Below are positions 4,201-63,734 of a DNA stretch of 64,000 nucleotides, in pieces. The stretch is from a virus. Lineage: Duplodnaviria; Caudoviricetes. The notes under the pieces were generated by a model. The model saw nothing but the letters and a program-made list of their open reading frames with translations. It searched no databases and was not told where the DNA came from. Position 1 is the stretch's first letter, and each line of letters begins with the position of its first letter. Both the position numbers and the translations under genes were made by a program. The DNA lies in IMG/VR virus record IMGVR_UViG_3300014208_000024, positions 224,001-288,000 of that record. One strand, given 5' to 3'.

Positions 4201-5120
4201 TGTTTAAAAACAAAATTCAAAGAGCTAGAAGAGTAGATGAGAATGGAGATGTTTGGGAGTGGGCATATAGAGTTGTTTCTCCAATAATATCGCAATCAAA
4301 CATAGATAATCTTTATTATGTAGAGAATGGACAAGATTCTCATGGAAATGATATTTATACAAAAGACATTTTAGGTCAGTATTTTGATAATTTAAATGGA
4401 TGGGGTTGGTACAAAATGATGAATATAAATTCATCTGCTGTTTATGACAATCCTGGTGAAATGATTAATGAAAATCTTGAAAATATAGACGGACACCCAC
4501 TTGATGTTTATCCAGAAGAAAACCCTGATCCAAATGAAAATCTATTTCCACCTGACCATTGCGTAGATGACACTATTACAAACCCACATTTAACATCAGC
4601 AATCGATGGAGACATGTCTCCTCTCATTGGTTCTACTCAAACATATAGTGTAGATGATATTTATGAAATTAATTTTGTTTGGGATGTTCCAATTGATTGG
4701 ACTATTGTTGACGGTCAAGGAACAAACTCAATAAATGTTAATGTGACATCTACTCCTGGAGTTATTAGTGTAATTCCACAAAACGCAGATGGAACAATAG
4801 CAGGTCAAGGTTCATCTTTAAATGTAACGCCTTCAACATCTCAAGTTGTAACATTATATGTTCAAGTGAATAGTCCAAATTATGACTCAGGTTATCCATT
4901 TTTTAAAATATCAATTAATAATGGAACTGCAACACAATATTTAGGAAACGAAAATAGTATAAATATTTTACTAAACAGTTTAGTGAAAATTACTGTATTA
5001 ACAAACAAAATTGATGGAGAATTTTATGATGGAATGAGTGGAGATATAACAACATCTTCTTCACAACTTTCTGCGGAGTTTACAATGGACAATAATAAAA
5101 ACATATTTATTAATTATTAA
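1260..5120 (+). CDS. Large virion structural protein with Calx-beta-like, PKD-like and InlB-B-like modules
   Basis: 1286 aa, S/T/N-rich beta character; ENNEDNVPGADEYILVEL (Calx-beta-like), FVWDVPIDWTIVDGQGTNSINV (PKD-like), C-terminal GMSGDITTSSSQLSAEFTMDNNKNIFINY (InlB-B-like). Confidence 0.6.
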   Translation: MEQKHEILKNRLFTSTTTVSTVSDNLELVNNYYLNPTGEIEKIVDYTNVRGFLSNENNQKIVNAYYSYLTSSTEMNESYSNSTFKASAKFKAIYYDDEKLADSFNEYYNSIILRGAQNSSIYISGSPTDTTTDAYKNTVNNQLLGTQEYEYVTQNVSHNNFYWKSNVPHSQANSPQKPPFPEASTNAVLDIYGGDRILLEEQKIVEKPLGENYFVNVFLQKRHTQIARIAFEACNKDSIFRVTNNNSSFSQNVTDKIRHNDFLSTLEKKEVGIDGYEINDSQQTNVLLPSQSFGSAYNYSSNIITSNGTILYGITDSEGNPVLLPAEPIGATTGTTGNTIIQCFVDPNFKTNANEYWTNYFPNISFELSNYILQRTNLTLNEEKEIKIVFSNTADESYSFKVKITYLQGSSTNAIIKEIQTNVIEQEFIPSAGATKQILTIIGLANSLVASTIKLEITDYGKFIAGTKMSTLINVVPPIIPPKRVYFNPFTEINGQQVALPTEEINGRLYVVFSVSEMPDTQQQWGLPIQVLIDSLPSGDEYIGLKYSQSSGSIENGINPSIDWYVSIDSVSSEPTNGILNNTLAWTTPGQSPSNQIKNLLFHIENNEDNVPGADEYILVELLYDTNHANTQSVTSYNDNFDFSGVKIIITDSTAIPPNVSLCSLPDFYYINFSDSKYDNIDESVLSYYKPDQSLRYLLREDFQGNVDGPRFKEYINGYAFDIDPTAPYYGLYSDTVQFLPTNYTIPSTNNNIFVLRGLDGSLWELAGKWNAFGIDYPTLPTFPTGQIIYTVNDKGGQSMGTNQIFWRKRSETETICNSVNALMGRTEIIVSGLNNSQINEVKDDEIVTTYVNGQVETSADVELILTDSSGNIIIGPPNRKFAAQNPNVVETQIQGGGSANIVRFTNCSIPINFSEDFYNYVSGWDLYNRFLVKAGVQPIIEKTISTVTGDIKISKVSVYYFINGLRKSWETDDHFYDGIVFKNKIQRARRVDENGDVWEWAYRVVSPIISQSNIDNLYYVENGQDSHGNDIYTKDILGQYFDNLNGWGWYKMMNINSSAVYDNPGEMINENLENIDGHPLDVYPEENPDPNENLFPPDHCVDDTITNPHLTSAIDGDMSPLIGSTQTYSVDDIYEINFVWDVPIDWTIVDGQGTNSINVNVTSTPGVISVIPQNADGTIAGQGSSLNVTPSTSQVVTLYVQVNSPNYDSGYPFFKISINNGTATQYLGNENSINILLNSLVKITVLTNKIDGEFYDGMSGDITTSSSQLSAEFTMDNNKNIFINY

Positions 5121-11392: not shown

Positions 11393-13936
11393 TTAAAAAG
11401 TAAATATTTCCTGAGTTATTAAATTTTGAGATGTTTCACTTACGTCACCAATTGGTACACTTACAGCAACAATAGATGAAGAAATTACAGAATTATTTCC
11501 ACCTGCATTTACAATAAGATTTATGTTAAAAGATTTTATATTTGCGCTCCTTGTACTTATATGTGTATAATGTGGAATTCCAACATTTATTAAATTAGAT
11601 GTTAAAATTTCATTTTTCTTTGACGAAACAGAATGTAGTTTAGTTCTTGCTGATGGATGAATGTTTCCTATGGGAATATTTCTTAAGTTCCCAGAACTAC
11701 TCATTAAACTTCTTGATGTCATGTCAATTTGTCCAACAAAAACAAATATTTTACCTGTATTTAAAAATGAGTATCTTATAGGCTCTGGAACTACTTCTGG
11801 AGGAAACTCTTTTCTAAACATAGAACCTAAATCAACCCCTTCTCTATAAACAAATCTCTGTCTATGAAAAACAGGGTTTTTATATAACGTAGGAACAGTA
11901 TCATCAAAAATTGTAGTTGCAGGAACTAATTGAAGTATATAATCTCCCAACTGAACTTCTAATAATTGAAGATATGCTTCGAGTCTACACATTGTTAAAC
12001 TATTGCTATCTGGACATGTTGAATAATAATATGCCAAATATATGTTTTTTAATTCTGGATATGACCAAGTTGTATGACTTTGTGTGTTTGTTTTCCTATT
12101 TGTTGGGTTAATAGAATTTGTATAAACATAATCTATATATTCTGTCAAAGTCATGGAACTTATGCTTGTTGGATAAACATCATCCTGACTAAAAGTTAAA
12201 TATTCATATGGAATTGTTGTACAACTAAGTAAAGGACACGGGTTTCCCCAAACCCAAGTAGAACAAACGTTTTGGTAATACTCCCAAACATCATCTTCTA
12301 TTGCTTGTGATGGCGTAAATGAAAGTTGAACTTCTTTTGTATTAACAATATTTCTTGTTCCACCAGTAGAATCACCTATTTCTACTTTTTCGTTATCAAC
12401 TCTTGAAATTGGATTAAATTCTGGTTTCCATTGATTTATATATGCGTCCCCATTTCCTCTACCTTCTCCTCTATGTTGAAATGGGTATAAACTAGAGCTG
12501 AATTCAATATATCCATCATCAGCTACCTTATTGGTTACAAATGGGGTTGTTTTGGTAATATCATAAACAAATTCATTAAAGTTTATTAAGCAATCTGGGG
12601 CACCCAATAATTTAAATATAAACATTATTGCGTCTCTAGTTCCCTTTTTCTTATATAACCAAACAATATTTATTAAAATTCTTCTCCAAATTTCAACATT
12701 AAAATAAGAAAAAGAATTAGACTGTTGATCTAAATCCGTTGTTAAATAATCAAACATGTCTAATTCACTAAATCCGTCAGAAAGTTTCCAACCAAGAAGA
12801 TTACTTAATTTAATTAAAAATTTTCTAGGAACAGTTTCTTCATTATTATATTCAACACTATGAGCATATGCAATAGCATCTATATAGTTTTTTAATTTAT
12901 CAAATTCATAAGCATATGTTTGAACGATTGTTCTGTAAATTTGTCCATCAGAATCTAATTCTAAAAAATTTTCTGGAATTACTGTTTTTATAAAGATATC
13001 TGTTTTTTCTTCGTCAACTTTTTCTGCTGCCGTTAATATTTTTTCTTTATAATCTTCAAAACCAGAACCATATGAATCTGGCGCCCAACCATCTATTGTT
13101 CTTGGCCATATAAAGGTTTGTTCAAATGAATCATCTTGAGGAGTGTCAGTTGCTGGTATTAAAAATATTCCATCATTTAACATTTGAGTTTCCAAAGCGG
13201 TTATTGAATCGTTATAATTAAACATCCTTTCTTTAGTTGGTCTAATAAAAAGACTATCAACATATGTTGTGATGGAATTATTTTTTAAAAACTCATTAAC
13301 TTCAAAATACAAATATGTTCCAGAAAAAGAATAACTTTTTATTGAAAAAACATCTGTTTGTCCACTAATTTGAATACAAAAGTCTGCATAATCGTAAGGT
13401 AAGCTGTAAACATTTTCAGTGTTTGCCGAAACCAAAGCAATATTTCCTTGATTAGTTAAACCAGATATTGGAATTTTAAAAGAAGATGTTCTTTCTAAAG
13501 TTATTGCATTAAAACTTTCAGTATAATCAAAAATATTTATATTACCACTGTTATAGGAAAAAATAGCATATGGATAATTTGAAATTATATTATTAATTGA
13601 TGAAGCTACACTTGTATAAAAAGAGGAAAAATAAGAGTGGCTTTTTGGATTTTTTTTAGGTAAATTTAATTCATTTTGTTGAACAAATGGAATAGAAATA
13701 TTATTGCTGCTAGAAAAATTTGTAGCGTTTAAAGTTTCTAAATTATCAAAACCACCAAATTGAAGATTTTTTGTATCAGCTGTTAAATAATCTAATGAAT
13801 AATCTCTTTCTATTGTAAAATCTCCAAATGTAAATATTGCCTCAGATTTTGAAGCCAACAATCTTTTATTTTGTCCTGGTCTATAATTTACAGATAATGT
13901 AGTAGCAGAATTTGGTATTGTGTCAAAAATAGGCAT
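11393..13936 (-). CDS. Baseplate wedge / P2 gpI-like tail protein
   Basis: 847 aa; LIKLSNLLGWK...IVWLYKKKGTRDAIMFIFKLLG matches the tail_P2_I / wedge family pattern; TATTTATA on - strand at 13954-13961. Confidence 0.65.
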   Translation of the reverse strand: MPIFDTIPNSATTLSVNYRPGQNKRLLASKSEAIFTFGDFTIERDYSLDYLTADTKNLQFGGFDNLETLNATNFSSSNNISIPFVQQNELNLPKKNPKSHSYFSSFYTSVASSINNIISNYPYAIFSYNSGNINIFDYTESFNAITLERTSSFKIPISGLTNQGNIALVSANTENVYSLPYDYADFCIQISGQTDVFSIKSYSFSGTYLYFEVNEFLKNNSITTYVDSLFIRPTKERMFNYNDSITALETQMLNDGIFLIPATDTPQDDSFEQTFIWPRTIDGWAPDSYGSGFEDYKEKILTAAEKVDEEKTDIFIKTVIPENFLELDSDGQIYRTIVQTYAYEFDKLKNYIDAIAYAHSVEYNNEETVPRKFLIKLSNLLGWKLSDGFSELDMFDYLTTDLDQQSNSFSYFNVEIWRRILINIVWLYKKKGTRDAIMFIFKLLGAPDCLINFNEFVYDITKTTPFVTNKVADDGYIEFSSSLYPFQHRGEGRGNGDAYINQWKPEFNPISRVDNEKVEIGDSTGGTRNIVNTKEVQLSFTPSQAIEDDVWEYYQNVCSTWVWGNPCPLLSCTTIPYEYLTFSQDDVYPTSISSMTLTEYIDYVYTNSINPTNRKTNTQSHTTWSYPELKNIYLAYYYSTCPDSNSLTMCRLEAYLQLLEVQLGDYILQLVPATTIFDDTVPTLYKNPVFHRQRFVYREGVDLGSMFRKEFPPEVVPEPIRYSFLNTGKIFVFVGQIDMTSRSLMSSSGNLRNIPIGNIHPSARTKLHSVSSKKNEILTSNLINVGIPHYTHISTRSANIKSFNINLIVNAGGNNSVISSSIVAVSVPIGDVSETSQNLITQEIFTF

Positions 13937-14065: not shown

Positions 14066-16267
14066 ATGAGTTACATAATCCAAGAGCCTTCAAATTTTAT
14101 AAACATCAAACTTACAGATACTGGAAGAAGATTGTTATCGTTGGGTACATTAACTTTTAATAAAATAATCCTTTCTGATAGAGAAGTTAATTATTTAATG
14201 GACAGAGTTAATTATGATATTTGTCAAAACAGAATTTTAGCACCAAAAGATGATCATCCAAAGTTTTCGTATACAACCACACCAACTTCAATAGGTGGAT
14301 CAGGTGCTGTTTCGCTTCCAGACATGGGAATTGCCGCAGGCAATCAGGGATTTACTACTTCTGTTAACAATTCAATGTCAAGAAGTACCTTAGCCGCTTC
14401 AGTTCCTGGAGTTTATGCTGGAACTATTGGTAGTTTTAATGGAGCCGCTGCTGTTACAATAAATGCACAAAATTTAACTAGTGCAAGACAAATTGTTTCA
14501 GCCATGACAAGTGCTGCTGGATTTTTTTCTGGAAGCTCTGGAAATTGGTCAATAAAAACCACTGCTGGAGTCGGAGAAGGTCAAACTCTTGGTGTTTCGC
14601 AAATAGATTATTCGCAATTTATCCCAAGTGGAGGTACAGAAATTTATGTTCTACCTGGCGGATATTCTGCATCAACTGGAGATTTGGTTTTTATTCCATG
14701 GGAACCACCTCAATATAGTGCAATAACAAATAATACATCTTTTATATATAGTGGCAGACCAAATGTGTCTTTGTGGTATAGAGTTCAAAGTAGAAGTGGA
14801 TTGAAATTAAATCTTGATAGAAGTGTTCCAAATTTTGGAAGTGTTCCAAATGCAAGTTCTAATCAAAAAATTCAAACTTACTTTTATCCATATGAAGCTA
14901 TATCAACTTATTATGGTACTGCTACCACGGTTAATTGTGGTGTATGGAACATGAATATAGTTAGAACATCATCTATCGAAGGAACCTCTTCTGCAATGAG
15001 CGGTTTTACAACATATGGTTCCATAGAATACAATGGAACTAAACAATATTTAGGATTTGATAATGAAACAAAGGCTTTGGGGGTAATTCATTATACAAAC
15101 AAGTTCTCTGGTAACACCTATGCTGAACAGTTTGTTCCTGGTACTGTTAAATTAGAAATACCACATGTAATGTGGCATAAATATTATGGAATTCAAAGCT
15201 CAACTATAGGAAGAGAAATGAGCTGCGGAATAACACTATATGATTATTATGGACTAAATACGTTTGATCCAATATCAAATACTCACTATAGAGAACTAAG
15301 AGATGGAATGACAAGTACATCAAATGTTGTTGGAAGAGTTTATTATAAACTTAAAATAATAGTAATAACAGATCAAGAACTTCTGACAGTGTTAACTTAT
15401 AAATCTAACAGAAACTACACACTACCAGAACCAACAGTTACCACAGTTGCTTCAACATTGGGAATATCTACTGGATTATGTAAGTCTGATTATTCTTACT
15501 ATGTAACATATACAGTATCAAGTAATTCTTTCCAAAACGGATCAAGCTATGGATATCCACAAAGTTTACCATGTTCATACGTTAAAAAGGTATATGGTGA
15601 AACAGATTCTCAAACAGGATTGCCGTCTATTTTAAGAGTTGGTTTCCCAACACTTTCATTCCCATATATGAGAACAAGTTCTGATTTATCTACTTTAAGT
15701 GGAACTGGTTGGAACGCAAATTCAGTTCAAATTTTTGTTCAAGAAATCGTTACTTCTGCAAGTACGTTAGTTGGAGATTTGCCAACAGATGATTGGAAGT
15801 TAATTTCAAGTGGAATTGGAAATGGAATATATACTGGAGAAACAGGAACATCAACAATTAGTCCATCTGATTTACAAAGTCATATTTTTAACATTACTCA
15901 AGCAGACTATGATTCTGGAACTACATATTCTTTAACTGGGAACTATTCAGCATTTACATCTAATATAGATTCAATAAATAACAGTGGATTAACTTTTGGA
16001 GACGAATCTTTCTTTTATGGAAATTTAACAACAGGAATTTTAGCAAGTGTATACAAAACGGTAATTTCAATATATGCAAAAAATGATCAATATAACTCTT
16101 CAATGTTCAATGACACATTTGATAGCACATATAATGAAGATACTTTTATTACAGAAATAGGAATTTTAAATAAAAACAACGAACTTGTTGCGGTTGCAAA
16201 ACCAGCTTATCCAATAAAGAAAAATGAATCAAGATATTTAGCATTTCAATTAGAATTAGATTTTTAA
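14066..16267 (+). CDS. Tail-collar/baseplate fibre-attachment protein (P2 gpH N-terminal-like motifs at both ends)
   Basis: N-terminal IKLTDTGRRLL and C-terminal ITEIGILNKNNELVAVAK resemble the two halves of the gpH/DUF3751-type domain; TATTTATA at 14046-14053. Confidence 0.6.
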   Translation: MSYIIQEPSNFINIKLTDTGRRLLSLGTLTFNKIILSDREVNYLMDRVNYDICQNRILAPKDDHPKFSYTTTPTSIGGSGAVSLPDMGIAAGNQGFTTSVNNSMSRSTLAASVPGVYAGTIGSFNGAAAVTINAQNLTSARQIVSAMTSAAGFFSGSSGNWSIKTTAGVGEGQTLGVSQIDYSQFIPSGGTEIYVLPGGYSASTGDLVFIPWEPPQYSAITNNTSFIYSGRPNVSLWYRVQSRSGLKLNLDRSVPNFGSVPNASSNQKIQTYFYPYEAISTYYGTATTVNCGVWNMNIVRTSSIEGTSSAMSGFTTYGSIEYNGTKQYLGFDNETKALGVIHYTNKFSGNTYAEQFVPGTVKLEIPHVMWHKYYGIQSSTIGREMSCGITLYDYYGLNTFDPISNTHYRELRDGMTSTSNVVGRVYYKLKIIVITDQELLTVLTYKSNRNYTLPEPTVTTVASTLGISTGLCKSDYSYYVTYTVSSNSFQNGSSYGYPQSLPCSYVKKVYGETDSQTGLPSILRVGFPTLSFPYMRTSSDLSTLSGTGWNANSVQIFVQEIVTSASTLVGDLPTDDWKLISSGIGNGIYTGETGTSTISPSDLQSHIFNITQADYDSGTTYSLTGNYSAFTSNIDSINNSGLTFGDESFFYGNLTTGILASVYKTVISIYAKNDQYNSSMFNDTFDSTYNEDTFITEIGILNKNNELVAVAKPAYPIKKNESRYLAFQLELDF

Positions 16268-21559: not shown

Positions 21560-21736
21560 TTAATTATTTAACATTTGCTCCATAGATTCTCTGACAAATT
21601 CAGATATTTTAATAATTTTACCTCGTTGAACACTTTGCTCAATTGTTTTTTTAACACATCTTTGATATAAATCATCACTTAATCTAAATGTTAATGTCCT
21701 AAACTCTATTGCTTTATTTTCATCTTCTTTTTTCAT
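21560..21736 (-). CDS. Ribbon-helix-helix DNA-binding protein (58 aa; not in the ORF track)
   Basis: MKKEDENKAIEFRTLTFRLSDDLYQRCVKKTIEQSVQRGKIIKISEFVRESMEQMLNN: beta-ribbon TLTFRL, helix, SEFVRES helix; stop is 10 nt upstream of the endonuclease start. Confidence 0.75.
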   Translation of the reverse strand: MKKEDENKAIEFRTLTFRLSDDLYQRCVKKTIEQSVQRGKIIKISEFVRESMEQMLNN

Positions 21737-21856
21737 AATTGTTTTTTAAATTGTTTTGTCTTACATAAATATATGAAAAAATTATAAAATAAAAATATTT
21801 AAAACAATTCTTTTAAAAACAGAATAAATGTTATATCTTTGCATAAATAAAATTTT

Positions 21857-24800
21857 ATGAAAAATAACATTTCCATAGCACATATAAGTGACCAGCATAT
21901 CCGATTTTCATCAAGACACCAAGAATATAAAGAAGTTTTTGAAAGATTATATGAGGATTTAAAAAAAATAAAACCAGATTACATAATTTGTACAGGAGAT
22001 TTAAATCATTTAAAAATAAACATGTCGCCTTCGTCTATTGATTTGGCATCTGAATTTCTAATTAGTTTAGCAAAAATCTCTCCAACATATTTAATATTAG
22101 GAAATCATGATCTTAATGTCCAATGTAAGGAGCAAGGAGATACTGTATCTCCAATAATAGATATTGCAAATAAATTTTATGATTTAACAAATCCAACACC
22201 TAGAATAGATAACAAAGTAGCTCATATTGTTTCAGAAAGAAATAAGGAAAAAATAGACTTTTCAAAAAAAGGAATTTATTTATTTCCAGAAAGTGGATTT
22301 TACAAAATTTCAAATAAACTTATATTTGGAGTTTATTCATGTAAAGACAATAAAATATTAACATTAGACAAAAAAGAACCAGGTGTTAAATATGTAGCAT
22401 TATATCACGGAAAAATAAAGGGAGCTAGAGGGGATAATGGATATGAATTAATGGGTGATGATTTATTAAATATATCTACATTTAACAATTTTGATGCTGT
22501 TTTAATGGGAGATATTCATTTATATCAATCATTTCAAAATGATTCTATTGCATATTCAGGCGCTCTCATTCAACAAGATTATGGAAGTGATATAAATTGT
22601 GGATATTTATTGTGGAGTTTAAATTTGGAAAGCGAAACTGTAACTCACCAAAGAAAATATATTTTAAATGATTATGGTTTTGCAAAAATAACAATTGCAA
22701 AAGGAGAAAATATAGAAGAAAGAATTGAAAACATTAAATTCAGTAACAATAAAAAACAAACAAAAGTTTATATAATCTGGGAAGATTATGAGGAAAATTA
22801 TTCTACAGAAAAAGAATCTCAAATTGCAAAATTAGTAAAAGAAAAATTTGGTTGTGACGTTGTGAAGGTAGAATTTTCTGAAATCAAAAAAATACAACAA
22901 GACAATACTGATGTAGCAGATTCAAAAAATCAAGAAACATTTTTACAACAAATATCTACATATCTAAAAGAAATAAATCCAGATGAAGATGAGTCTATAA
23001 TAAAAGAAGTTCTTTCTTTGGCAGAGTTTATTGATAAAGAATTGGAGATTACAGATAAAGTTGAAGATGTTAAGCTTTGGGATGTTGATAGTATTGAAAT
23101 TTCTAACATATTTTCATTTCCAGAAAAACCAATTTTTATTAATCTGGAAAAAATGAGAGGTTCTACTGGAGTGTTTGGTAAAAACTATTCTGGTAAATCC
23201 AATGTTGTCAAAGCAATTGTTTGGGGATTATATCAACACATTCTTGGAGGCGGAAGTGCAAAGAAAATTGTAAACATTTACACATCTTCTAATAAGGGAT
23301 ATGTAAAAATTCACCTTACAATAGATGGTGAAAAATATTATTTAAAAAGAGAAGTTATAACAAAAGTCGATAAATACGGAGAATCTTCAAACTCTTATCC
23401 AATTGAATATAGAAAACTGATAACTGACGACGATGGAAAACAAAAGTGGGTGCCAGAAATATCAGATAAAAAAGCAAACACAAAAGTAGAAGTTAAAAAC
23501 ATTGTTCTTTCTGCAATTGGAACAGTCGAAGATTTCACAAAAGTTTGTCTACAGACTCAAGGCGGAAAAGAAGATTATATTAATCAAGATCAACAACCAA
23601 AAAACGATTTGGTTAATAAATATCTTGGATTAGAACAGTTTAGAGACAGATATGATTATGGAAACAAAACATTTAACGATGTAAAGAAAAAACAAAAAGA
23701 GCTTGGAGATATAGTATCCCTTCAAGCAAAAGTATTAGAAGTTGAAGCATTAATAACAAAAATTCAGTCAGAATACGATGCTTTAGTTATTGAAAAAAAC
23801 CATTCTGAATCAAAAAAAGATGTTGTTGATAATAAAATTTTAGAATTGTCTAAAAATTTAAAACAGTATGTTAATCTATTAAGAGATGAAATTAACAACA
23901 GACAAGATATATTAAACAACATAAACACATTAGAAAATCAAATAAAAGAAGATGAGGTAAAACACAAATTTCTTTTTGAATGGATTTCTGTAAATTTTAA
24001 AAAAGAATTGCCATTCGATGAAAACGAAACTGTTGAAAAGTTAAATTCAGAATTAACAAAAGAAAGCAATCAATTTACAAAAGAAAGAAATAAATATGTT
24101 GAGATAGAAAAATGGATTAATGAAAATCCAATTAGAAATTTAGAAAGTATAGAGGGGTTTGATTTAATTATTCAAAATTTAAATTTTCAAATAGCAAATT
24201 TACAAGCAAAACTTCCAACATATAAAGGAGAACAGTGCCCAACTTGCGGAAATATTACACAAAAACCAAATATTGAAATGTATAACCAATGTTTGAGTGA
24301 AATTTCAACACAAACTGGAGTTTTAAATAGCTATATAAATGCAATTAACAAACATCGTGAAGACACCACTAATAACAAAAATGTTGAAATACAAAATTCA
24401 AATCTATTAGCTCTTCGTGCTACACTAACATCCAGGAAAGAGAAAAAGGAAAAATTAATAGAAAAAATATCTTTAATATCACAATCTAAAGAAATTTTAA
24501 TACACAATCAATTAGTAGAAGATAATAACAAATTGTTGCAAACTACAAAAAACAACATTGATATTAAAATAAAATTAATAGAAAAGTTAAAATTAAATCT
24601 TGAAAAAATAGTTCAAAATGAAGATGCAAAAAAACATAACATATCAATAGAAAAAGAAATTTTTGAATTACAAGAACAAAGTAAGGCATATAAATTTTCT
24701 ATTTATGGACTTTCACAACAAATAACCAATAAAAATGGGGACCTTAGAGTTGAAAAAAATAATTTGGAAAATTATAATAATAAACTCGAAGAAGTAAAGG

Positions 24801-33292: not shown

Positions 33293-33679
33293 TTATCTGT
33301 TGTCAATCATTTCAATTTCATCATAAAACATTAGAATCGAATGATTAAGAGCTTGAATCTTTCTTAGTGTTTTATATAACATTACCGTCAAAAAAACAAT
33401 TGGAATTAAACATATGAAGAAAAATAACCCATGAAGACATACAAATGAATAAACAGTAAGAAAAACTAAAAGAGAAAACTCAACATTTCTTCTTATTTTT
33501 GTTTCTTTAATTTCTTTAATATCTTCCTCCATTTGCCTTCTTGTTTCACTAATTTCTTCATAAGACAAATTCTTGATTATGTTTTTTTCAATTTCAATAA
33601 ATTCAGAAAACTCGTTGTGATATTCTTCAAGTTCTTTTTCGTATTTTTCAATACTGCTGTTTTTTTTAATAAATTTCAT
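33293..33679 (-). CDS. Membrane protein (two TM helices)
   Basis: Coiled-coil N-terminus followed by hydrophobic FSLLVFLTVYSFVCL and GLFFFICLIPIVFLTVML. Confidence 0.6.
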   Translation of the reverse strand: MKFIKKNSSIEKYEKELEEYHNEFSEFIEIEKNIIKNLSYEEISETRRQMEEDIKEIKETKIRRNVEFSLLVFLTVYSFVCLHGLFFFICLIPIVFLTVMLYKTLRKIQALNHSILMFYDEIEMIDNR

Positions 33680-33835
33680 ACTCTTTTTTTTACGTTAAAC
33701 TTCGTTTCTACTGTATTATACGATTTTTTTTTATAAATGTTACAAAATAATGTGTTTTTTATTTTGAAATCCCGTTTTTTTTATATATAGAAAAATATTA
33801 TAAAAAAAATACATATTTATAAAAAATAAAGTTAT

Positions 33836-41218: not shown

Positions 41219-41701
41219 ATGAAAAATAGCATTAAAAATTTTTTATTAGAATCAGAAAGTGATAAGGATGATAATTTTACTTATATCAAAGGAGATACTA
41301 TTGCAAAAGTTAACGATGTAGACTTTGACAAAAAAGAAGATTATATAAAAATAGACTTTTCTACTACTTATAAAAAGAAATACTCATTTGTAGCAAAACT
41401 AACCGATTTTAAAAAATGGTTAAATAACAGATTAAAAGAAAAAAACGAATCCCCAAATTTATTTCACGACTACCTAGTAAATTTTTTTAATTCTTCGAAA
41501 GAGGCTGATGTAAAACAAATAGACGAAATTATAGACGATACAAATGAAATTATGCCAGATGAAGATATGCCGTCAAATGCTACAAACAGAATGATTGGAA
41601 CAGGTCATACGATGGACTTAGAAAAAATCTTCAAAAGATCTATGCCAAAATCAGTTAGAAATTACTCTGGTAACTTGGGATTAGGAACAGTAGTTTGGTA
41701 A
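41219..41701 (+). CDS. Late protein, putative internal head protein
   Basis: TATTTATT at 41197; begins MKNSIKNFLLESE. Confidence 0.5.
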   Translation: MKNSIKNFLLESESDKDDNFTYIKGDTIAKVNDVDFDKKEDYIKIDFSTTYKKKYSFVAKLTDFKKWLNNRLKEKNESPNLFHDYLVNFFNSSKEADVKQIDEIIDDTNEIMPDEDMPSNATNRMIGTGHTMDLEKIFKRSMPKSVRNYSGNLGLGTVVW

Positions 41702-51852: not shown

Positions 51853-51903
51853 TTTGAATATCTAATATTTTTTTATTATATTTGCTTTTTAAAACTTAAA
51901 ACA

Positions 51904-52347
51904 ATGAACATAAGAATTGTAAACAAATCAAAAAACGCATTACCAAATTATGAAACTTCTCTCTCTGCAGGTATGGATTTGAAAGCAAATTTCGAAAATC
52001 AAGGAGAGTTCGCAACAATCAAACCATTTCAAAGACAATTGATTAAAACGGGTTTATTCATTGAGATTCCAGAAGGTTATGAGGCTCAAATACGTCCAAG
52101 ATCTGGTTTGGCATTAAAAAGTGGAATAACAGTTCTTAATTCACCAGGGACTATTGATGCTGATTTTAGAGGTGAGATAGGAGTTATTTTAATTAATCTT
52201 TCAGATAAAGATTTTGAAATTAAACAAGGAGATAGAATAGCACAAATGGTAATTTGTAAACACGAAAAAGCAGAACTTGAAAATGTTTTGTTAATCAGTG
52301 AAACAAAGCGTGGAGCAGGTGGATTTGGGCATACTGGTAATAAATAA
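51904..52347 (+). CDS. dut: dUTPase (trimeric)
   Basis: All five motifs: [34 protein letters not shown]. Confidence 0.97.
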
Positions 52348-52351
52348 AAAT

Positions 52352-53551
52352 ATGAAACAATACGTTGATTTAATTACAACTATCCTTAAAGAAGGAAGAA
52401 TAAAAACTGATCGCACTGGAACTGGAACTATTTCTACATTTGGACATCAGTCTGTATTTTACATGAAAGACGGATTTCCTCTTTTGACAATGAAAAAAAC
52501 ATATCCCAGAGGAGTTTTTGAAGAGCTTCTATGGTTTCTTAAAGGAGATACAAACATTCGATATCTGAATCAAAAAAAGGTTCACATTTGGGATGAGTGG
52601 GCCTATGCCAAATATAAAAAATACGCAGAATCACTAAGTGAACCAAATTTCGAAATTCACATTGATGATCCAAAAAATAATTGTACAAGGATAATGACAC
52701 TAGAAGAATTTGTAAATGTTATCGTTGATAATGAAGATTTTGCTAAACGTTGGGGAGGGCTGGGTCCTGTTTACGGAAAACAATGGGTTGATTGGGGCGG
52801 ACACCCAGTAAAACGTGAGGAAATATGGAGCGAAGATGATCAGAAGTGGATTAGTTATGAAGTAAGAAAAAAAGGAATAAACCAAATTGAAAATATCATT
52901 GATCGTCTCAAAAGCGTTCCAGACTGCAGAAGACTTATTGTTAGCGCTTGGAATGTTGAAGATCTTGGTGAAATGGCACTTACTCCTTGTCATACAATGT
53001 TTCAGTTTATTACTGAACCTCTAAATTTTAAAGAAAGAGTGGAACTTTTAGAAGAACAAATGGGGGAAGATAAAAGATTTTTAGAGGGTTTGGATACAAA
53101 TGGAGTTAATGGGTGTTTTGCAAAATACAAAACTCCATCATTTAGACTTTCTTTACAGCTCTTTCAAAGAAGTGCAGATACTTTTCTTGGTGTTCCTTTT
53201 AATATTGCTTCTTATGCTCTCTTATTACATATGGTCTCACAAGTAGTAAATATGATTCCTTATAAATTTGTTCATTCTTTTGGAGATGCTCATCTTTATT
53301 TAAATCACAAAGAACAAATTAATGAATTCATACACAGAACACATGAAGCAAAAATAGAAAAAGTTGATTATTGGAAAGAAATCACAAATGGGATACAGCC
53401 TGGGAAAATAACAGGAACTTATTTTGGCCCAAAACTTCCAACTATAAAACTAAACTCAAAAATAAAAGATATTTTTGAATTTACAATAGACGACATCGAA
53501 CTAATAGATTACAATCCGCTTTCAGCAATAAAAGCTCCAATAGCAGTGTAA
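52352..53551 (+). CDS. thyA: Thymidylate synthase
   Basis: DRTGTGT, ELLWFLKG, LGPVYGKQW, PCH nucleophile, QRSADTFLGVPFN (dUMP-specifying Asn), GDAHLYLNH; start ATG 52352. Confidence 0.96.
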   Translation: MKQYVDLITTILKEGRIKTDRTGTGTISTFGHQSVFYMKDGFPLLTMKKTYPRGVFEELLWFLKGDTNIRYLNQKKVHIWDEWAYAKYKKYAESLSEPNFEIHIDDPKNNCTRIMTLEEFVNVIVDNEDFAKRWGGLGPVYGKQWVDWGGHPVKREEIWSEDDQKWISYEVRKKGINQIENIIDRLKSVPDCRRLIVSAWNVEDLGEMALTPCHTMFQFITEPLNFKERVELLEEQMGEDKRFLEGLDTNGVNGCFAKYKTPSFRLSLQLFQRSADTFLGVPFNIASYALLLHMVSQVVNMIPYKFVHSFGDAHLYLNHKEQINEFIHRTHEAKIEKVDYWKEITNGIQPGKITGTYFGPKLPTIKLNSKIKDIFEFTIDDIELIDYNPLSAIKAPIAV

Positions 53552-56653: not shown

Positions 56654-56722
56654 CAAATAACTATTTTTTTATAAATAGTTTTATTTTATGATTTTTTAAT
56701 TATTTATTGGAAATTTAACAAT

Positions 56723-57388: not shown

Positions 57389-57415
57389 AAAAAAGCCCCA
57401 GAATTTGGGGCTTTT
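57389..57415. terminator. Bidirectional intrinsic terminator
   Basis: A6-GCCCCA GAATT TGGGGC-T4; nearly identical to the terminator at 6018-6045. Confidence 0.85.
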
Positions 57416-57426
57416 CTTATTGTAAT

Positions 57427-57864: not shown

Positions 57865-57964
57865 AACCTATTTTATTTGGTTTTCATATAAATATAATAA
57901 AAAAATCAAATATCTATTTTTGTTTTTAAAAAATATTGTATATATTTGTAAAAAAACTAAAAAA

Positions 57965-58480
57965 ATGAATAAACGTGAACAAATTTTAGAATTTATTGAG
58001 GATATTGAATTGCTTGATGAATTCGCAGATGATGCAATAATTGGATATGTAGAAAGAGCATGTGGATCTAATTATGTTTTATACGAAAAAGAAAAACTAT
58101 TTAGTTTATTTAAAAACGAACCTCTTTGTTTAAAAGAAGGTCAACTTATATTTACAAAAGCTAATTTAACAGAAATTGAAGGTATTGAAAAAGGTAATTT
58201 ATTAATTGCAGATGGTTTTAATGATGCAATAATTGGATATGCAAATACCTCAGACTTTAATTGTTTTGTTATTTATGATACCGAAAAATGTATTAATCTT
58301 CTTGCTGAAGATTATAAAAAAGAAATGAAAGAACAAGAGCCAGAAAAAACAGAAGAGGAAATAAATTCAGAAACATACGAAATGGCTGTAGAATATTTTT
58401 ATTTTAACACAGCAGGAGCCTACATGGGAGAAAAAACACCAGGGTTTGCAACTATGATTTTATCAGAGGATTCTGATTAA
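57965..58480 (+). CDS. Hypothetical protein with an internally duplicated D(G/E)FxDAIIG domain
   Basis: LLDEFADDAIIGYV...VLYEKEK and IADGFNDAIIGYA...VIYDTEK; start ATG 57965. Confidence 0.6.
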   Translation: MNKREQILEFIEDIELLDEFADDAIIGYVERACGSNYVLYEKEKLFSLFKNEPLCLKEGQLIFTKANLTEIEGIEKGNLLIADGFNDAIIGYANTSDFNCFVIYDTEKCINLLAEDYKKEMKEQEPEKTEEEINSETYEMAVEYFYFNTAGAYMGEKTPGFATMILSEDSD

Positions 58481-58856
58481 CTCTTTTGTTTTCTTCAAAT
58501 ATAAGAGAAATAATCTGTTTTAAAAATCCTTGTTTTTTTACTAACTTTTTATATTCTACCGCAAGTGAATTTGCTATCGTCAAAGCATTTGGACTATATA
58601 TGGTTTTTTGCTCAGACTCTTTTCCATTAACTACACTAACAAAATAAGCAGCATCCACTCCCATAGGCCACCTAATCCAGAAATGAATTCCTATTGGAAG
58701 TGTAAAGTGAAAATATGTTACCCCTTCCTTTTTGTCACGTTCAATTGTAAAATCTTTTAATGACATTCCAGCTTTTTTAAAAACGCTTTTGTAAACAGCT
58801 TTAATTCTTTCGTCTGGAATGTTTTCGTTTAACAAATTTTCTTCTTCTTTTTTCAT
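58452..58856 (-). CDS. Hypothetical protein
   Basis: 134 aa, co-oriented directly downstream of the CCA enzyme. Confidence 0.5.
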   Translation of the reverse strand: MKKEEENLLNENIPDERIKAVYKSVFKKAGMSLKDFTIERDKKEGVTYFHFTLPIGIHFWIRWPMGVDAAYFVSVVNGKESEQKTIYSPNALTIANSLAVEYKKLVKKQGFLKQIISLIFEENKRVNQNPLIKS

Positions 58857-58859
58857 AAT

Positions 58860-60254
58860 TTAAGATTTGCTAATAAATATTATTTTCTTTATTTCTTCTG
58901 AATTTCCAGAATCTAAAATTCTTTTAACCATATCTGGATTTTTGTAAAATTCCTTTTCTAATCTTGCAATAGCCATCCCCAATTCTCTTTCTTGGTATCC
59001 AAGTGATTTAAGCAACTCGGAAGGTTGTATAAATTCATTTGCAAGTCTTAAAAAATTGCTTATTTTAATTCTGTCTATGTGACTTATGTTTGCAAAACTA
59101 TATATCATATCTTCTGTCATTGAATAAATTTTTTCGTTTATTTTAGGTTTTGCACTTTTTGCCTTTTGAAGATATAGTTTTTTTATAGAAGAAACAGTGT
59201 TTTCGTTTAAACTTAACAAAGAAACAAGAAAAATAATACAACTTATTTCATCAGTACTATATTTTCTAAAATTTAATTCTTTTTCTATGTTTTTTACATT
59301 ATTGTCTTTTAATAAGTTAGAAACTAAGATTATTGGATTTTTCTCTTCAATAAAATAATTAGCACTAAAAGTTAAATTACCAAATATATATTTAAAAAAA
59401 TCAAAATCTTTTAACAATTCAAGAAAGTGTTTTACGCTTTTTGAACTTTTAATTCCTTTATAAAACTCATCCCTTATTCTTTCCAAAGAAACCATTTTTC
59501 CAGTAGGGTCGGTCAAAGAAGTTCCCCCTTCCCTAATAGCTTCAGCAACATTGTCGGGAATTTTAGATCCCATTTTTGCAGCAAATCTTATAGCTCTAAT
59601 TTTTCTCAATGGATCTTCATCAAATCTATCGGTTGGATTTCCGACGGTGTTAATAACATTGTTTTTAACATCATTTACTCCACCAACAAAATCTAATACA
59701 TCTCCTTCAAAACCATTTTCTGCAATTCCAGTTATTTCATAAAACAATGCGTTGATCGTTAAATCTCTTCTTTTTGAATCTTCCTCTGGATTATCTACGT
59801 ACTCAACACTATCTGGTTTTCTTCCTCCTCCAACATCTTTTCTAAATGTTGCCAATTCATATCTGTTTCCAGATTTTGTTACTATAAATTGAATTGCAAA
59901 TGATTCTCCAATGTGCAAAATATTGGAAACGAAAGGTGCCTTTTCGAATAATGTTCTTATTTGATCTGGAAAAGCATTGGTGGCCAAATCAAAATCTTTT
60001 GGCACATCAATAGTTGTATCCATTGGGTTCTTTTGTAATTTTATTTCGTTTTTTACAGCGTCTCTTACGGCACCACCAACAATATACATTTTAAAATTAT
60101 TCGCAAGTAATATTTCTCTTATTTTTAAAATATCTTCTTTGTCACTTGACGCCACTGGCATATTAAGAGGAAACCTTTTTTCTCCATTATCTTCCTTTAA
60201 AAAATTCTCAAGTAATATCTTTCTTATTTTTTTTCTGGCAATTTTTTCTTCCAT
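58860..60254 (-). CDS. cca: Class II tRNA nucleotidyltransferase (CCA-adding enzyme), no HD domain, with N-terminal leader
   Basis: YIVGGAVRD, DFDLAT, ELATFRKD, RRDLTINA, templating EDPLR, ERIRDE; leader MEEKIARKKIRKILLENFLKED; TATTTATA (-) at 60268. Confidence 0.88.
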   Translation of the reverse strand: MEEKIARKKIRKILLENFLKEDNGEKRFPLNMPVASSDKEDILKIREILLANNFKMYIVGGAVRDAVKNEIKLQKNPMDTTIDVPKDFDLATNAFPDQIRTLFEKAPFVSNILHIGESFAIQFIVTKSGNRYELATFRKDVGGGRKPDSVEYVDNPEEDSKRRDLTINALFYEITGIAENGFEGDVLDFVGGVNDVKNNVINTVGNPTDRFDEDPLRKIRAIRFAAKMGSKIPDNVAEAIREGGTSLTDPTGKMVSLERIRDEFYKGIKSSKSVKHFLELLKDFDFFKYIFGNLTFSANYFIEEKNPIILVSNLLKDNNVKNIEKELNFRKYSTDEISCIIFLVSLLSLNENTVSSIKKLYLQKAKSAKPKINEKIYSMTEDMIYSFANISHIDRIKISNFLRLANEFIQPSELLKSLGYQERELGMAIARLEKEFYKNPDMVKRILDSGNSEEIKKIIFISKS

Positions 60255-60351
60255 AAACAACATTTTTTATAAATATGAAAACTTTTTAGTAATTTTTACG
60301 TTATTATTCAAATAAAGTTATTATATTTGTATAAATAATTTTAAAAATTAA

Positions 60352-61876: not shown

Positions 61877-62653
61877 TTTTTTTAATCTACCTTTTTTCCA
61901 TCCCAATTTTACATATAAATCTAATTCGTTTTTTATAACACGTTTACTTTCCTGCTTTTCTGTGTTATAAATCCATATTTTCCCAATTTGAGAGTTACTC
62001 ATTCTTTCTTTGGTTTCATTAGAATAAATATTATCTTTACCCTTATTCCACGGCAACTTTCCTTTATTACATTCAGAACATTTTCTTTTAGACTCATCTG
62101 AATGGTGTTTTCCAAACATTGGGTTGTTTTTTCCATAATTTGATCTAATATTTTTTCTTGCTTTGTCTGATATTGGAACACCTTTTCTATATTCACTTAA
62201 TTTATTTTTTACTTCATCTGAATGATGTTTTCCAAATCTTGGAGATTTTTCACCAGACATTTTTTCTCTAAGCTTTTGTTTAGTTTCTTCTGTATGAGTT
62301 CTTCCATACATTGGATTTCTTTTTCCTGTCATCATTTCTTTTCTCTTTTGTGTAACTTCTTTTGTCATTTTCTTTCCACAATTTGTATATACAACAGAAT
62401 TTCTTATGTTGTATCCAACTTCTTTGTTTATAGATTTTAGTTTTTTAATCCAATAAACTTCTAATTCTTTAATTTCATCTATCGTTAACGCAAAAGATTC
62501 TTCAATGATTTCTTTTTTGAAGTTTTCTTTGCCATACTTTTTAATAGCATATTTAATTGCTGTACCAGAACCTAAATAATTAGGATTATTTTTTGTATCT
62601 AGTCCTATATATATTTTCCCATTGATTAAATTCGTTGTTTTATAAATTATCAT
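61862..62653 (-). CDS. GIY-YIG homing endonuclease with NUMOD3 repeats
   Basis: MIIYKTTNLINGKIYIG...YLGSG; repeats such as NPMYGRTHTEETKQKL, RFGKHHSDEVKNKL, NPMFGKHHSDESKRK. Confidence 0.92.
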   Translation of the reverse strand: MIIYKTTNLINGKIYIGLDTKNNPNYLGSGTAIKYAIKKYGKENFKKEIIEESFALTIDEIKELEVYWIKKLKSINKEVGYNIRNSVVYTNCGKKMTKEVTQKRKEMMTGKRNPMYGRTHTEETKQKLREKMSGEKSPRFGKHHSDEVKNKLSEYRKGVPISDKARKNIRSNYGKNNPMFGKHHSDESKRKCSECNKGKLPWNKGKDNIYSNETKERMSNSQIGKIWIYNTEKQESKRVIKNELDLYVKLGWKKGRLKKLFIF

Positions 62654-62805
62654 AAGATTTTATTTTTATATTCATTTTCTATCCACTCTTTAATTTTATT
62701 TTCAATAAACTTAGATTTATTCAAAGACATTTTAGAACTAATTTTTTCAAATTTTTCATATAATTCCTTGTTTATTGTAAAAGTTTTCTTTATTTTTGTA
62801 TTCAT
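62650..62805 (-). CDS. Ribbon-helix-helix DNA-binding protein (51 aa; not in the ORF track)
   Basis: MNTKIKKTFTINKELYEKFEKISSKMSLNKSKFIENKIKEWIENEYKNKIL; its TGA overlaps the endonuclease ATG (ATGA). Confidence 0.8.
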   Translation of the reverse strand: MNTKIKKTFTINKELYEKFEKISSKMSLNKSKFIENKIKEWIENEYKNKIL

Positions 62806-62903
62806 TGTTTTGTATTTATTAATATTTATTTATAAATATAAAAAAATTTTATTTTAAAGAAAACATTTATAAAAAAAATCGTATAAATTAATAAATCACT
62901 AAC

Positions 62904-63494
62904 ATGCCAAGAATTGTTAAAATAAAAAAAGAAAAAAGAGTTTACGACGGATATACAAAAGTTGATGAAGCTCTAATTGAAGATACATTAGAAAGTGGTA
63001 AAGTATCTACATACTCAAGACAAAAAGTAGTAAGGCCAGATGCTGTTGCTGGTTTAATTTATAACACTGATACAGAATGCGTGGTTCTTGTAAAGCAGCA
63101 TAGGTATCCAACTCATTTTGGAAACAGAAATGGATTCATATATGAAGCTATGGCTGGAAAAATTGATTCTGGAGAAAACCCAAAACAAGCTTTTATTAGA
63201 GAAAGTTTTGAAGAGGTTGGATATAGGCTTAAAGAAAAAAACGTAGAATATTGTTTTAACTGCTTTACTACTCCAGGATATTCCACAGAAAGAATTCATT
63301 ATTTTTTAGCAACAGCTACAAATAAAGATAAAATAAAAAATGCTGGAGGAGGAATGGAAGACGAACATGAAAATATAGAAATTTGTGAATTTCATTATCT
63401 TCAATTTAGAAGTATGATGGACACAATGGAAGATGCTAAAACAAAATTACTTGCATATGAAGCACATCACAGAAAATTGTTTGACAGGAAATAA
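62904..63494 (+). CDS. Nudix hydrolase (ADP-ribose/NDP-sugar pyrophosphatase, NudF/NudK-like)
   Basis: Nudix box AGKIDSGENPKQAFIRESFEEVGY; RPDAV, TPGYSTERIHYF, EDEHENIE, DAKT. Confidence 0.88.
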   Translation: MPRIVKIKKEKRVYDGYTKVDEALIEDTLESGKVSTYSRQKVVRPDAVAGLIYNTDTECVVLVKQHRYPTHFGNRNGFIYEAMAGKIDSGENPKQAFIRESFEEVGYRLKEKNVEYCFNCFTTPGYSTERIHYFLATATNKDKIKNAGGGMEDEHENIEICEFHYLQFRSMMDTMEDAKTKLLAYEAHHRKLFDRK

Positions 63495-63503
63495 AAATTA
63501 TTT

Positions 63504-63734
63504 ATGGGAAATTTATTAAAAAACAACGAAAGAGATAATATTGTGCAAAATTCGGTTATTGAATCTGTAACAGGATATTCTTGTCCTAATTGTGGGGCAA
63601 TATGTTGTGACAAAACATTTATATCTAAAACAGAAATAGAATTTAACGAATTTCCAAATCCACATTACAATTGGGATGAAATTCATAAATGCCAAAAATG
63701 TGAAACTCTTTATCTTTTACATAATGGTACATAA
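63504..63734 (+). CDS. Small Zn-ribbon protein
   Basis: CPNCG...CQKC; stop codon lies inside the ACATAAC core of the following palindrome. Confidence 0.6.
   Translation: MGNLLKNNERDNIVQNSVIESVTGYSCPNCGAICCDKTFISKTEIEFNEFPNPHYNWDEIHKCQKCETLYLLHNGT

Follow-up and report, generated by a model that had tools for sequence, protein, structure and literature searches.

A gene for a probable CCA-adding enzyme in a T4-like giant phage

We analysed a stretch of viral DNA of 64,000 nucleotides, hereafter the window (bases 224001-288000 of the 372,283-bp IMG/VR record IMGVR_UViG_3300014208_000024), and found on its minus strand a gene for a real class II tRNA nucleotidyltransferase. It is likely that this gene encodes a stand-alone CCA-adding enzyme without an HD domain, belonging to a phage-specific subfamily, and that its main job is to complete the phage's own tRNAs. 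Maturation of these tRNAs suffices to explain the presence of the gene, since 39 of the 46 tRNA genes of the phage do not encode the CCA end. The source record, rated complete by CheckV, is the genome of a 372-kb T4-like giant phage with about 28% G+C. Relatives of the enzyme are encoded on at least 519 IMG/VR contigs, and its own clade consists of about 20 unannotated metagenomic proteins at 61-73% identity.

Family, motifs and fold of the enzyme

The head domain of the predicted protein (residues 59-204) matches the Pfam model PolyA_pol (PF01743) above the cut-off (5.6e-26), with a weak Pfam match to PolyA_pol_RNAbd in addition. The protein also matches PHROG 2244, "tRNA nucleotidyltransferase" (1.3e-42), and its best NCBIfam model is PRK13299, the CCA tRNA nucleotidyltransferase without an HD domain (1e-45). 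To follow the catalytic residues we aligned 64 homologues. Residues G63, G64, R67 and D68 of motif A (GGxVRD) and the two aspartates of DxD (D90, D92) are invariant among them, as are E261, R262 and E266 of motif E (ERIRDE, 261-266), and R165, R166 and D167 of motif B together with E216, D217 and R220 of motif D (EDPLR, 216-220) are invariant or nearly so. The EDxxR of motif D is the amino-acid template for C and A, and both RRD and EDxxR align with their equivalents in 6IBP and 3AQM. The complete set of class II motifs described by an earlier reading of this DNA, made from the window's letters without searches (the sequence-only reading), is thus present, including EDxxR and ERxxxE.

The same reading had remarked on the absence of an HD domain, and a Pfam search of the protein indeed found no match to HD (PF01966). 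This absence is ordinary, because the solved CCA-adding enzymes that match best (6Q52/6QY6, 1MIV and 4X4W, the last of which is the human mitochondrial enzyme) also lack the domain. The AlphaFold (AF2) model of the phage protein has a mean predicted local distance difference test score (pLDDT) of 91.3 and a predicted template modelling score (pTM) of 0.85. In VIA-align it superposes on 6Q52 with Z 26.0 over 357 residues, on 4X4W with Z 25.8 and on 1MIV with Z 25.0; the alignments with CCA-adding enzymes span about 357-368 residues and run end to end, from model residue 36 or so to 466. Its C-terminal half fits the body and tail of 1MIV and 6Q52, which have no HD domain, and the modelled chain has the full head-neck-body-tail architecture that would be able to hold the acceptor/T arm of a tRNA.

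Several of the scores weigh against naming the protein a CCA-adding enzyme. The NCBIfam model of the pcnB subfamily reached 1e-43, almost level with PRK13299, and every NCBIfam score fell under its curated cut-off (156.5 bits against 290 for PRK13299; 112 against 439 for TIGR02692). In a phmmer search against the PDB, the E. coli poly(A) polymerase (PAP) matched at 1.1e-26 and the Planococcus CCA-adding enzyme at 7.3e-25, and the VIA Z for E. coli PAP, 24.3-24.5 over 330 residues, is a near-tie with those of the CCA-adding enzymes. The scores under the cut-offs indicate that the protein is too divergent for automatic naming, which lowers the equivalog assignment and leaves the superfamily membership as it stands. 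Overall similarity of sequence or structure cannot separate a CCA-adding enzyme from a PAP, and since the scores are so nearly tied (VIA Z within about 1.5), the PAP I signature and the loop between motifs A and B were used for the discrimination.

The PAP I signature, [LIV][LIV]G[RK][RK]Fx[LIV]h[HLQ][LIV] (Martin and Keller, quoted in PMC13514080), was searched as a regular expression and has no match in the phage enzyme or in 120 homologues of near length (P0002-P0121). At the position aligned to the signature the phage protein reads HIGESFAIQFI, in which Glu-Ser replaces the two basic residues of PAP. In the loop that joins motifs A and B, the phage sequence (RKPDSVEYV..EED.KRRDLTINA) follows that of the Planococcus CCA-adding enzyme (RRPDSVEFV..EED.RRRDFTINA) almost residue for residue, whereas E. 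coli PAP has a longer and unrelated segment between the two motifs. The flexible-loop residues G147, R148, P150 and D151 are conserved among the homologues; CC-adding enzymes lack the flexible loop between motifs A and B. Whole-chain comparison with Foldseek also places the model closer to the CCA-adding enzymes (template modelling score 0.66-0.74) than to PAP (0.47-0.54). From these sequence features a CCA-type specificity is very probable, and the assignment made by the sequence-only reading holds.

The phage tRNA genes and the role of the enzyme

ARAGORN predicted 46 tRNA genes in the whole phage genome, of which 45 occupy the minus strand from 1.8 to 77 kb and one is at 338.6 kb; none lies within the window, as had been noted before. 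For each tRNA we located the acceptor stem and read the three bases past the discriminator. These bases are CCA in only 7 genes and CAA in 23, and the first of them is C in 45 of the 46. The 39 tRNAs without an encoded CCA are therefore not chargeable until CCA has been added.

The same association is seen in the relatives. In 81 IMG/VR loci that were fetched because they carry homologues of the enzyme, tRNA genes were counted within 10 kb of the homologous gene; they were present in 37 loci, and 262 of the 284 tRNAs found in this way do not encode CCA. Their trailers are the same CAA/CTA as in the phage genome. In the phage itself CAA and CTA dominate, and adjacent tRNAs are often separated by just CAAAT or CAAAAT; the same two trailers recur in distant relatives (tRNA-bearing loci L008-L010, L020, L029, L035, L053 and others). 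The conserved C74 followed by a base other than C at position 75 looks selected, and is perhaps a processing signal or a way of avoiding the CCA anti-determinant of RNase Z. We found no RNase Z-like (Lactamase_B_2) gene in the phage genome; removal of the 3' trailer is therefore presumably left to the host. Among the predicted tRNAs there are also three suppressor-like ones, one with a UUA and two with a CUA anticodon (33634-33706, 74251-74324 and 75335-75409 of the genome, all minus strand), and the genes of the window read cleanly in table 11 all the same.

In the pathway that we consider likely, host nucleases would remove the 3' trailer of the phage tRNAs, which is mostly C-A-A-A/T, and the phage enzyme would then add C, C and A in a template-free manner, making the tRNAs chargeable. 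As any CCA-adding enzyme would, it should also restore CCA ends after nibbling or cleavage. The sequence-only reading had instead made the enzyme a possible partner in the rescue of damaged tRNAs; the whole-genome survey gave the result that this reading had itself named as refuting, 39 of 46 tRNA genes without CCA.

Four points speak against the maturation of the phage's own tRNAs as the main job. The octamer TATTTATA, a candidate late promoter element described below, stands in front of the gene for the enzyme yet is absent within 600 nt upstream of all seven tRNA blocks, so that the enzyme and its presumed substrates may not be co-timed. Over 200 kb of the phage genome separate the gene from the main tRNA region. 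One relative (L076) keeps the enzyme though 9 of its 12 nearby tRNAs encode CCA. Finally, that the phage needs a copy of its own beside the CCA-adding enzyme of the host is something we infer.

The TATTTATA motif and the start of the gene

TATTTATA occurs 38 times in the window against 14 copies expected, and none of 100 shuffled sequences reached 38. Genome-wide there are 194 copies; for 52% of them an ATG-initiated open reading frame (ORF) of at least 50 aa begins in the next 30 nt (7-38% for control octamers), with the mode of the distance to the ATG at 10-17 nt. Copies are located 39 nt upstream of the gp23-type capsid gene, 19 nt upstream of the gp21-type prohead protease gene, and also ahead of an endolysin gene. 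It is reasonable to regard TATTTATA as a putative late-gene motif and a candidate late promoter element. The late promoter of the sequence-only reading is in this way supported in its enrichment, its closeness to start codons and its position ahead of capsid and protease genes, and its function as a promoter stays putative. The label of host-promoter genes that the same reading gave to the neighbours is not verifiable by a scan for sigma-70-like sites, which are rarer in the sequence than in shuffles (35 against 63.8).

The first ATG of the gene would give a protein of 467 aa. Translation probably begins instead at Met4 (60254; 464 aa), because the database call and all close relatives begin at the fourth codon, and because the distance from TATTTATA to this ATG, 13 nt, falls in the genome-wide mode, whereas Met1 would leave only 4 nt. 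The intergenic region upstream (60264-60351, 88 bp) is divergent, separating the gene from a plus-strand cluster of a 95-aa ORF and NAPRTase, and it holds two minus-strand copies of TATTTATA, 62 nt apart.

A leader shared with other putatively late proteins

The N-terminal leader described by the sequence-only reading is real. In the AF2 model it forms a low-confidence helix (residues 2-20, pLDDT about 65) that is followed by a confident strand at 28-36, and the solved and cellular homologues align only from residue 36-46 or so, past the leader (bacterial CCA-adding enzymes from about 36, cellular homologues from about 44). The pattern [RK]xI[RK]KILLE is conserved in the stand-alone phage homologues, including a group of 385-aa proteins. 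We built a hidden Markov model (HMM) of the leader and compared it with the N-termini of 1218 phage ORFs. The best match was a 622-aa ORF beginning MEQIRKIIRKTLLES (E 5.7e-6), followed by ORFs of 160, 170 (a coiled-coil protein) and 359 aa (E 0.0034-0.025) and by several weaker ones. All of the matches begin at the initiator Met and nearly all stand behind TATTTATA or a variant with 7 of its 8 bases. The consensus of these unrelated ORFs is M-x-x-I/L-R/K-K-x-I-R/K-x-x-L-L-E. In the 622-aa ORF a leader-like stretch is repeated at the C-terminus (residues 609-624). When seven ORFs, of which six bear the leader, were searched against Pfam, no useful match resulted. By the HMM matches, the leader is common to the CCA-adding enzyme and at least four other putatively late ORFs, and is a candidate tag for capsid targeting or for sorting of some other kind.

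These observations raise the possibility, which we hold to be tentative and on balance unlikely, that the enzyme is virion cargo: it would be made late, directed by its leader into the prohead, trimmed there by a gp21-type protease after Glu19 and/or Glu24, and injected with the DNA. With the same low expectation, the injected enzyme might finish phage tRNAs that are transcribed from promoters other than late ones, or mend host tRNA ends from the start of infection. Just as tentatively, a single delivered kit for repairing tRNA ends could exist in two forms, the stand-alone enzyme and the CCA modules of polyvalent proteins. The cargo reading is about how the enzyme is delivered and can hold together with maturation of the phage's own tRNAs; it would also explain how a gene with a late motif serves tRNA blocks that have none.

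The phage does encode the machinery that such a route would use, namely a Peptidase_S77 prohead protease of gp21 type (2.9e-30) and the gp23-type capsid protein. LLEN occurs twice in the N-terminal region of the capsid protein, as ILLEN in the leader of the CCA-adding enzyme, and nine times in the whole proteome. Across the N-termini of the proteome, enrichment of LLE/LxE-type motifs is not significant, and the argument for a protease site therefore rests on the shared leader and not on motif counts. Among 34 phage records that carry the enzyme, an S77 protease was found in 15, and in three of the four records that are near-complete. In addition, we found 193 long relatives, proteins of 819-2335 aa with a CCA module, of which 120 were listed and form the basis of all module counts given here. 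In 101 of the 120 the CCA module is internal and preceded by [IL]xE[AS], which aligns with the FLKE-D of the leader.

Proteases of the T4 family cleave after Glu, T4 head proteins bear N-terminal targeting propeptides of 10-20 residues, and the capsid-targeting sequence is the sole feature common to the otherwise diverse T4 internal proteins (PMC5694885; PMC3012670). The phage leader resembles these in being a short N-terminal element on unrelated, putatively late proteins that ends in hydrophobic-x-Glu (PMC3012670; PMC5694885); in sequence it is not similar to the one that targets T4 proteins, and packaging and cleavage of the phage proteins would be hypothetical. The leader lies outside the conserved fold and has no counterpart in cellular homologues, yet it could equally be a basic helix that binds tRNA, or another tag for localisation or assembly. 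The other leader-bearing ORFs, moreover, obtain no function from Pfam, and the late motif ahead of them is a promoter only putatively. We know of no CCA-adding enzyme that is a virion protein.

The NTase-2H neighbour

The sequence-only reading had noted a nucleotidyltransferase (NTase)-2H fusion on the strand of the CCA gene, about 2 kb away, and this gene indeed starts 2.2 kb downstream. It encodes a 582-aa protein with an N-terminal NTase module (phrog_36119, 2.7e-49), a 2H cassette of Acb1/LigT type (residues 281-441; 2_5_RNA_ligase2 8.7e-12, Acb1 1.4e-5) and a C-terminal domain with HExxH, and it holds the only 2H domain of the phage genome. An identity of the NTase module with RlaP (RNA-ligase-associated) was considered and is not claimed, Pfam giving only a weak match to NTP_transf_2.

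The two genes were proposed to be a two-gene system, that is, a dedicated counter-defence pair in which 2H would act by opening the 2',3'-cyclic phosphate, and the CCA-adding enzyme would rebuild tRNA ends that host toxins had cut or modified. We regard such a pair as improbable. Four ORFs lie between the genes (134-aa; plus-strand 186-aa, phrog_13182; 145-aa, with a TATTTATA of its own; plus-strand 97-aa, phrog_1392). The CCA and NTase-2H genes are not one operon, because a strong terminator-like hairpin and two opposite-strand genes separate them and each has its own TATTTATA. That both bear the late motif is a point in favour of the pair, and the order from CCA to NTase-2H gene is kept, in only three close relatives (L002-L004); at 65-69% identity of the CCA-adding enzyme, such conservation is uninformative. 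Among the 34 CCA-bearing records the 2H cassette occurs in 6. Three of these are the close relatives, with the cassette adjacent to the CCA gene, and in the other three 2H stands by itself in an ORF of about 190 aa, 50-80 kb away from that gene; only one of the four near-complete records has the cassette. Co-occurrence of the two genes is thus poor.

The family as a whole gives the proposal more room. The long proteins with a CCA module also carry HD, 2H, P-loop kinase, HxGH NTase and ligase-like modules; HD was found in 65 of the 120, an AAA_33 kinase in 7 and an HxGH nucleotidyltransferase in many. In five, the CCA module is joined by a 2H module with Acb1-type matches and there is no HD. 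These 2H modules belong to the same subfamily as the cassette of the neighbour (35-46% identity, E 1e-30 to 2e-37), and in three of the five the 2H module directly follows the CCA module; P0139 and P0144 continue into a C-terminal KxDG ligase-like region. At the level of the family it is thus reasonable to suppose that 2H may stand in for HD beside a phage CCA-adding enzyme, and a repair link of CCA modules with 2H or HD is plausible. The idea that 2H supplies the missing phosphoesterase step is in this sense supported by the five fusions and unsupported for the gene pair of the window. Participation of 2H and CCA-adding enzymes in the RNA repair of jumbo phages has already been proposed (PMC7824862).

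Other features point away from the pair. The match of the cassette to the anti-CBASS Acb1 family suggests that its target is another one. After the step of a 2H enzyme a phosphomonoester remains, and a further phosphatase would still be required. Furthermore, the tRNA region holds another candidate end-healing set. The only HD match of the phage genome is an open frame beside a tRNA-Asp gene, which overlaps the end of a P-loop AAA_28 ORF; the two frames might form a kinase-HD pair for end healing, either frameshifted or coupled. An Rnl2-family RNA ligase is encoded directly beside the tRNA-Leu cluster.

The composition of the neighbour varies among relatives. In L004 about 380 nt separate the coding stretch for the NTase (residues 2-259; 13136-13909) from that for 2H-HExxH (residues 264-582; 14291-15247), and the latter lies within a 704-codon open frame (related coordinates in record G003, 119526-120083); the borders of the cassette therefore differ between relatives. 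In four distant relatives the NTase module occurs alone (phrog_36119; about 40% identity to residues 37-259 of the neighbour), upstream of the CCA gene and in the same orientation, and its link to the CCA gene may be more conserved than that of 2H.

Least probable, and in our view very unlikely, is that the protein is a PAP, or a tRNA nucleotidyltransferase that adds only A or only CC: the best PDB match in phmmer, the nearly tied pcnB model and the close VIA Z scores would fit a PAP, and a C already encoded after the discriminator in 45 of the 46 tRNA genes makes a partial activity conceivable, but the Glu-Ser in place of the basic pair of the PAP I signature, a flexible loop of CCA type without the deletion of the CC-adding kind, the better whole-chain fit to CCA-adding enzymes and the tRNA context all favour full CCA addition.

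Other neighbouring genes and feature coordinates

The 134-aa ORF directly downstream of the CCA gene keeps this position in two close relatives (L002 and L003) and is probably co-transcribed with it. The 186-aa ORF is convergent to it, with an overlap of 29 nt; in 13 other loci a homologue of the 186-aa ORF is found no more than about 10 kb from the CCA gene. A PHROGs search of 20 large ORFs of the window assigned few functions, and megablast of the 10 kb around the CCA gene against GenBank phages gave no match. The positions of the features are given in Table 1.

Table 1. Position and strand of the features discussed in the text. Positions are those of the window unless the genome (G000) or a related locus is named.
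Feature	Location	Strand	Remarks
Class II tRNA nucleotidyltransferase gene (CCA-adding type)	58860..60263	minus	467 aa from first ATG
N-terminal leader coding region	60192..60254	minus	residues 4-24; basic amphipathic helix ending ILLE-N and FLKE-D
Head (catalytic) domain, residues 59-204	59652..60089	minus	GGxVRD, DxD, flexible loop RKDVGGGRKPDSV, RRD
TATTTATA motif, candidate late promoter element	60268..60275	minus	13 nt upstream of Met4
Second TATTTATA copy, farther upstream	60330..60337	minus	in divergent intergenic region
134-aa ORF	58452..58856	minus	starts 4 nt past stop of CCA gene; no family match
186-aa ORF	57920-58480	plus	phrog_13182, 1e-17
Terminator-like hairpin, GC-rich, strong, bidirectional	57389..57417	both	separates CCA unit from NTase-2H gene
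NTase-2H gene, 582 aa	54908..56656	minus	own TATTTATA at 56670-56677; separate unit from CCA gene
160-aa leader-bearing ORF	41219-41701	plus	begins MKNSIKNFLLES
Leader-bearing ORFs elsewhere in genome	G000 93881-95749, 62592-63671	plus	match to leader consensus
Leader-bearing ORFs elsewhere in genome	G000 132308-132820, 366196-366714, 274369-274632, 4345-5025	minus	match to leader consensus
HD-domain open frame, 159 codons	G000 ~51863-52342 (L085 1408-1887)	minus	first ATG at codon 106
P-loop AAA_28 ORF	G000 52321-52854 (L085 1866-2399)	minus	upstream of HD frame, end overlaps; beside tRNA-Asp
Rnl2-family RNA ligase	G000 21668-22315	minus	PF09414, 8.7e-11; directly beside tRNA-Leu cluster
Lone NTase modules	L019 6136-6810, L043 6490-7203, L046 7423-8082, L048 83-778	same strand as CCA gene	~3 kb upstream of CCA gene; L048 ~1 kb

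Comparison with known enzymes

The phage protein shares the head-neck-body-tail fold, motifs A, B, D and E and the absence of HD with the CCA-adding enzymes of Planococcus halocryophilus (6QY6/6Q52) and Bacillus stearothermophilus (1MIV), at only 23-27% identity. It differs from these bacterial HD-less enzymes by its N-terminal leader of about 25-35 residues, and the phage clade has further insertions at residues 71-87, 178-184 and 365-378 (approximate borders) and a 25-residue C-terminal tail. E. coli Cca, with an NTase and an HD domain, has the class II NTase core and a possible repair role in common with the phage protein, which lacks the HD phosphohydrolase; the match to the corresponding NCBIfam model is weak (PRK10885, 8e-17, 61 bits against a cut-off of 451). 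E. coli PcnB (3AQL/3AQM) is nearly equal in the similarity of head and neck, in sequence as in fold, and also has EDxxR; the phage enzyme departs from it in the missing PAP I signature, the CCA-type loop and the poorer whole-chain superposition.

The tRNA nucleotidyltransferases of other large phages with many tRNAs (PHROG 2244; Caulobacter and Mycobacterium jumbo phages) belong to the same family, and the phage enzyme is at most 29% identical to any record in the GenBank phage collection. Its best matches labelled as cellular (34-41% identity, part of the leader included) lie on three contigs of 4-8 kb from metagenome-assembled genomes (MAGs; L096, L098 and L101). The MAGs bear the labels of unrelated taxa (Methanobacterium, Pseudomonas and Flavobacteriales); the contigs are probably phage DNA that was binned with them, and give no clue to the host. 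Polyvalent phage proteins have been described (PMC5512222), in an account that does not mention CCA modules; we found CCA modules at 35-42% identity inside the proteins of 819-2335 aa, whereas the phage enzyme stands alone.

Meaning of the finding

CCA-adding enzymes have already been listed among the translation genes of huge phages (PMC7162821, Fig. 3) and have been described as second in frequency among the RNA-end NTases of jumbo phages (PMC7824862, section 3.4.9). The published interpretation is that the phage enzyme restores CCA on tRNAs, as part of gene sets for translation and RNA repair (PMC7162821, PMC7824862). The gene described here is a divergent example of these enzymes. A link to arrays of CCA-less tRNA genes, and the shared leader, were not found stated in either of the two papers.

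The proportion of tRNA genes without CCA across the phage lineage, about 85-92%, together with the conserved C-A-A/C-T-A trailer, offers a simple reason for the presence of such genes. As the tRNA arsenal of these phages is useless without CCA addition, they depend on the enzyme (or on that of the host), which defence might therefore target. The single feature that merits further study is the shared leader. If the enzyme should prove to be carried in the virion, the idea of the T4 internal proteins would be extended to an enzyme of the translation apparatus, and the leader would become a sequence tag for predicting the injected proteins of uncultured giant phages.

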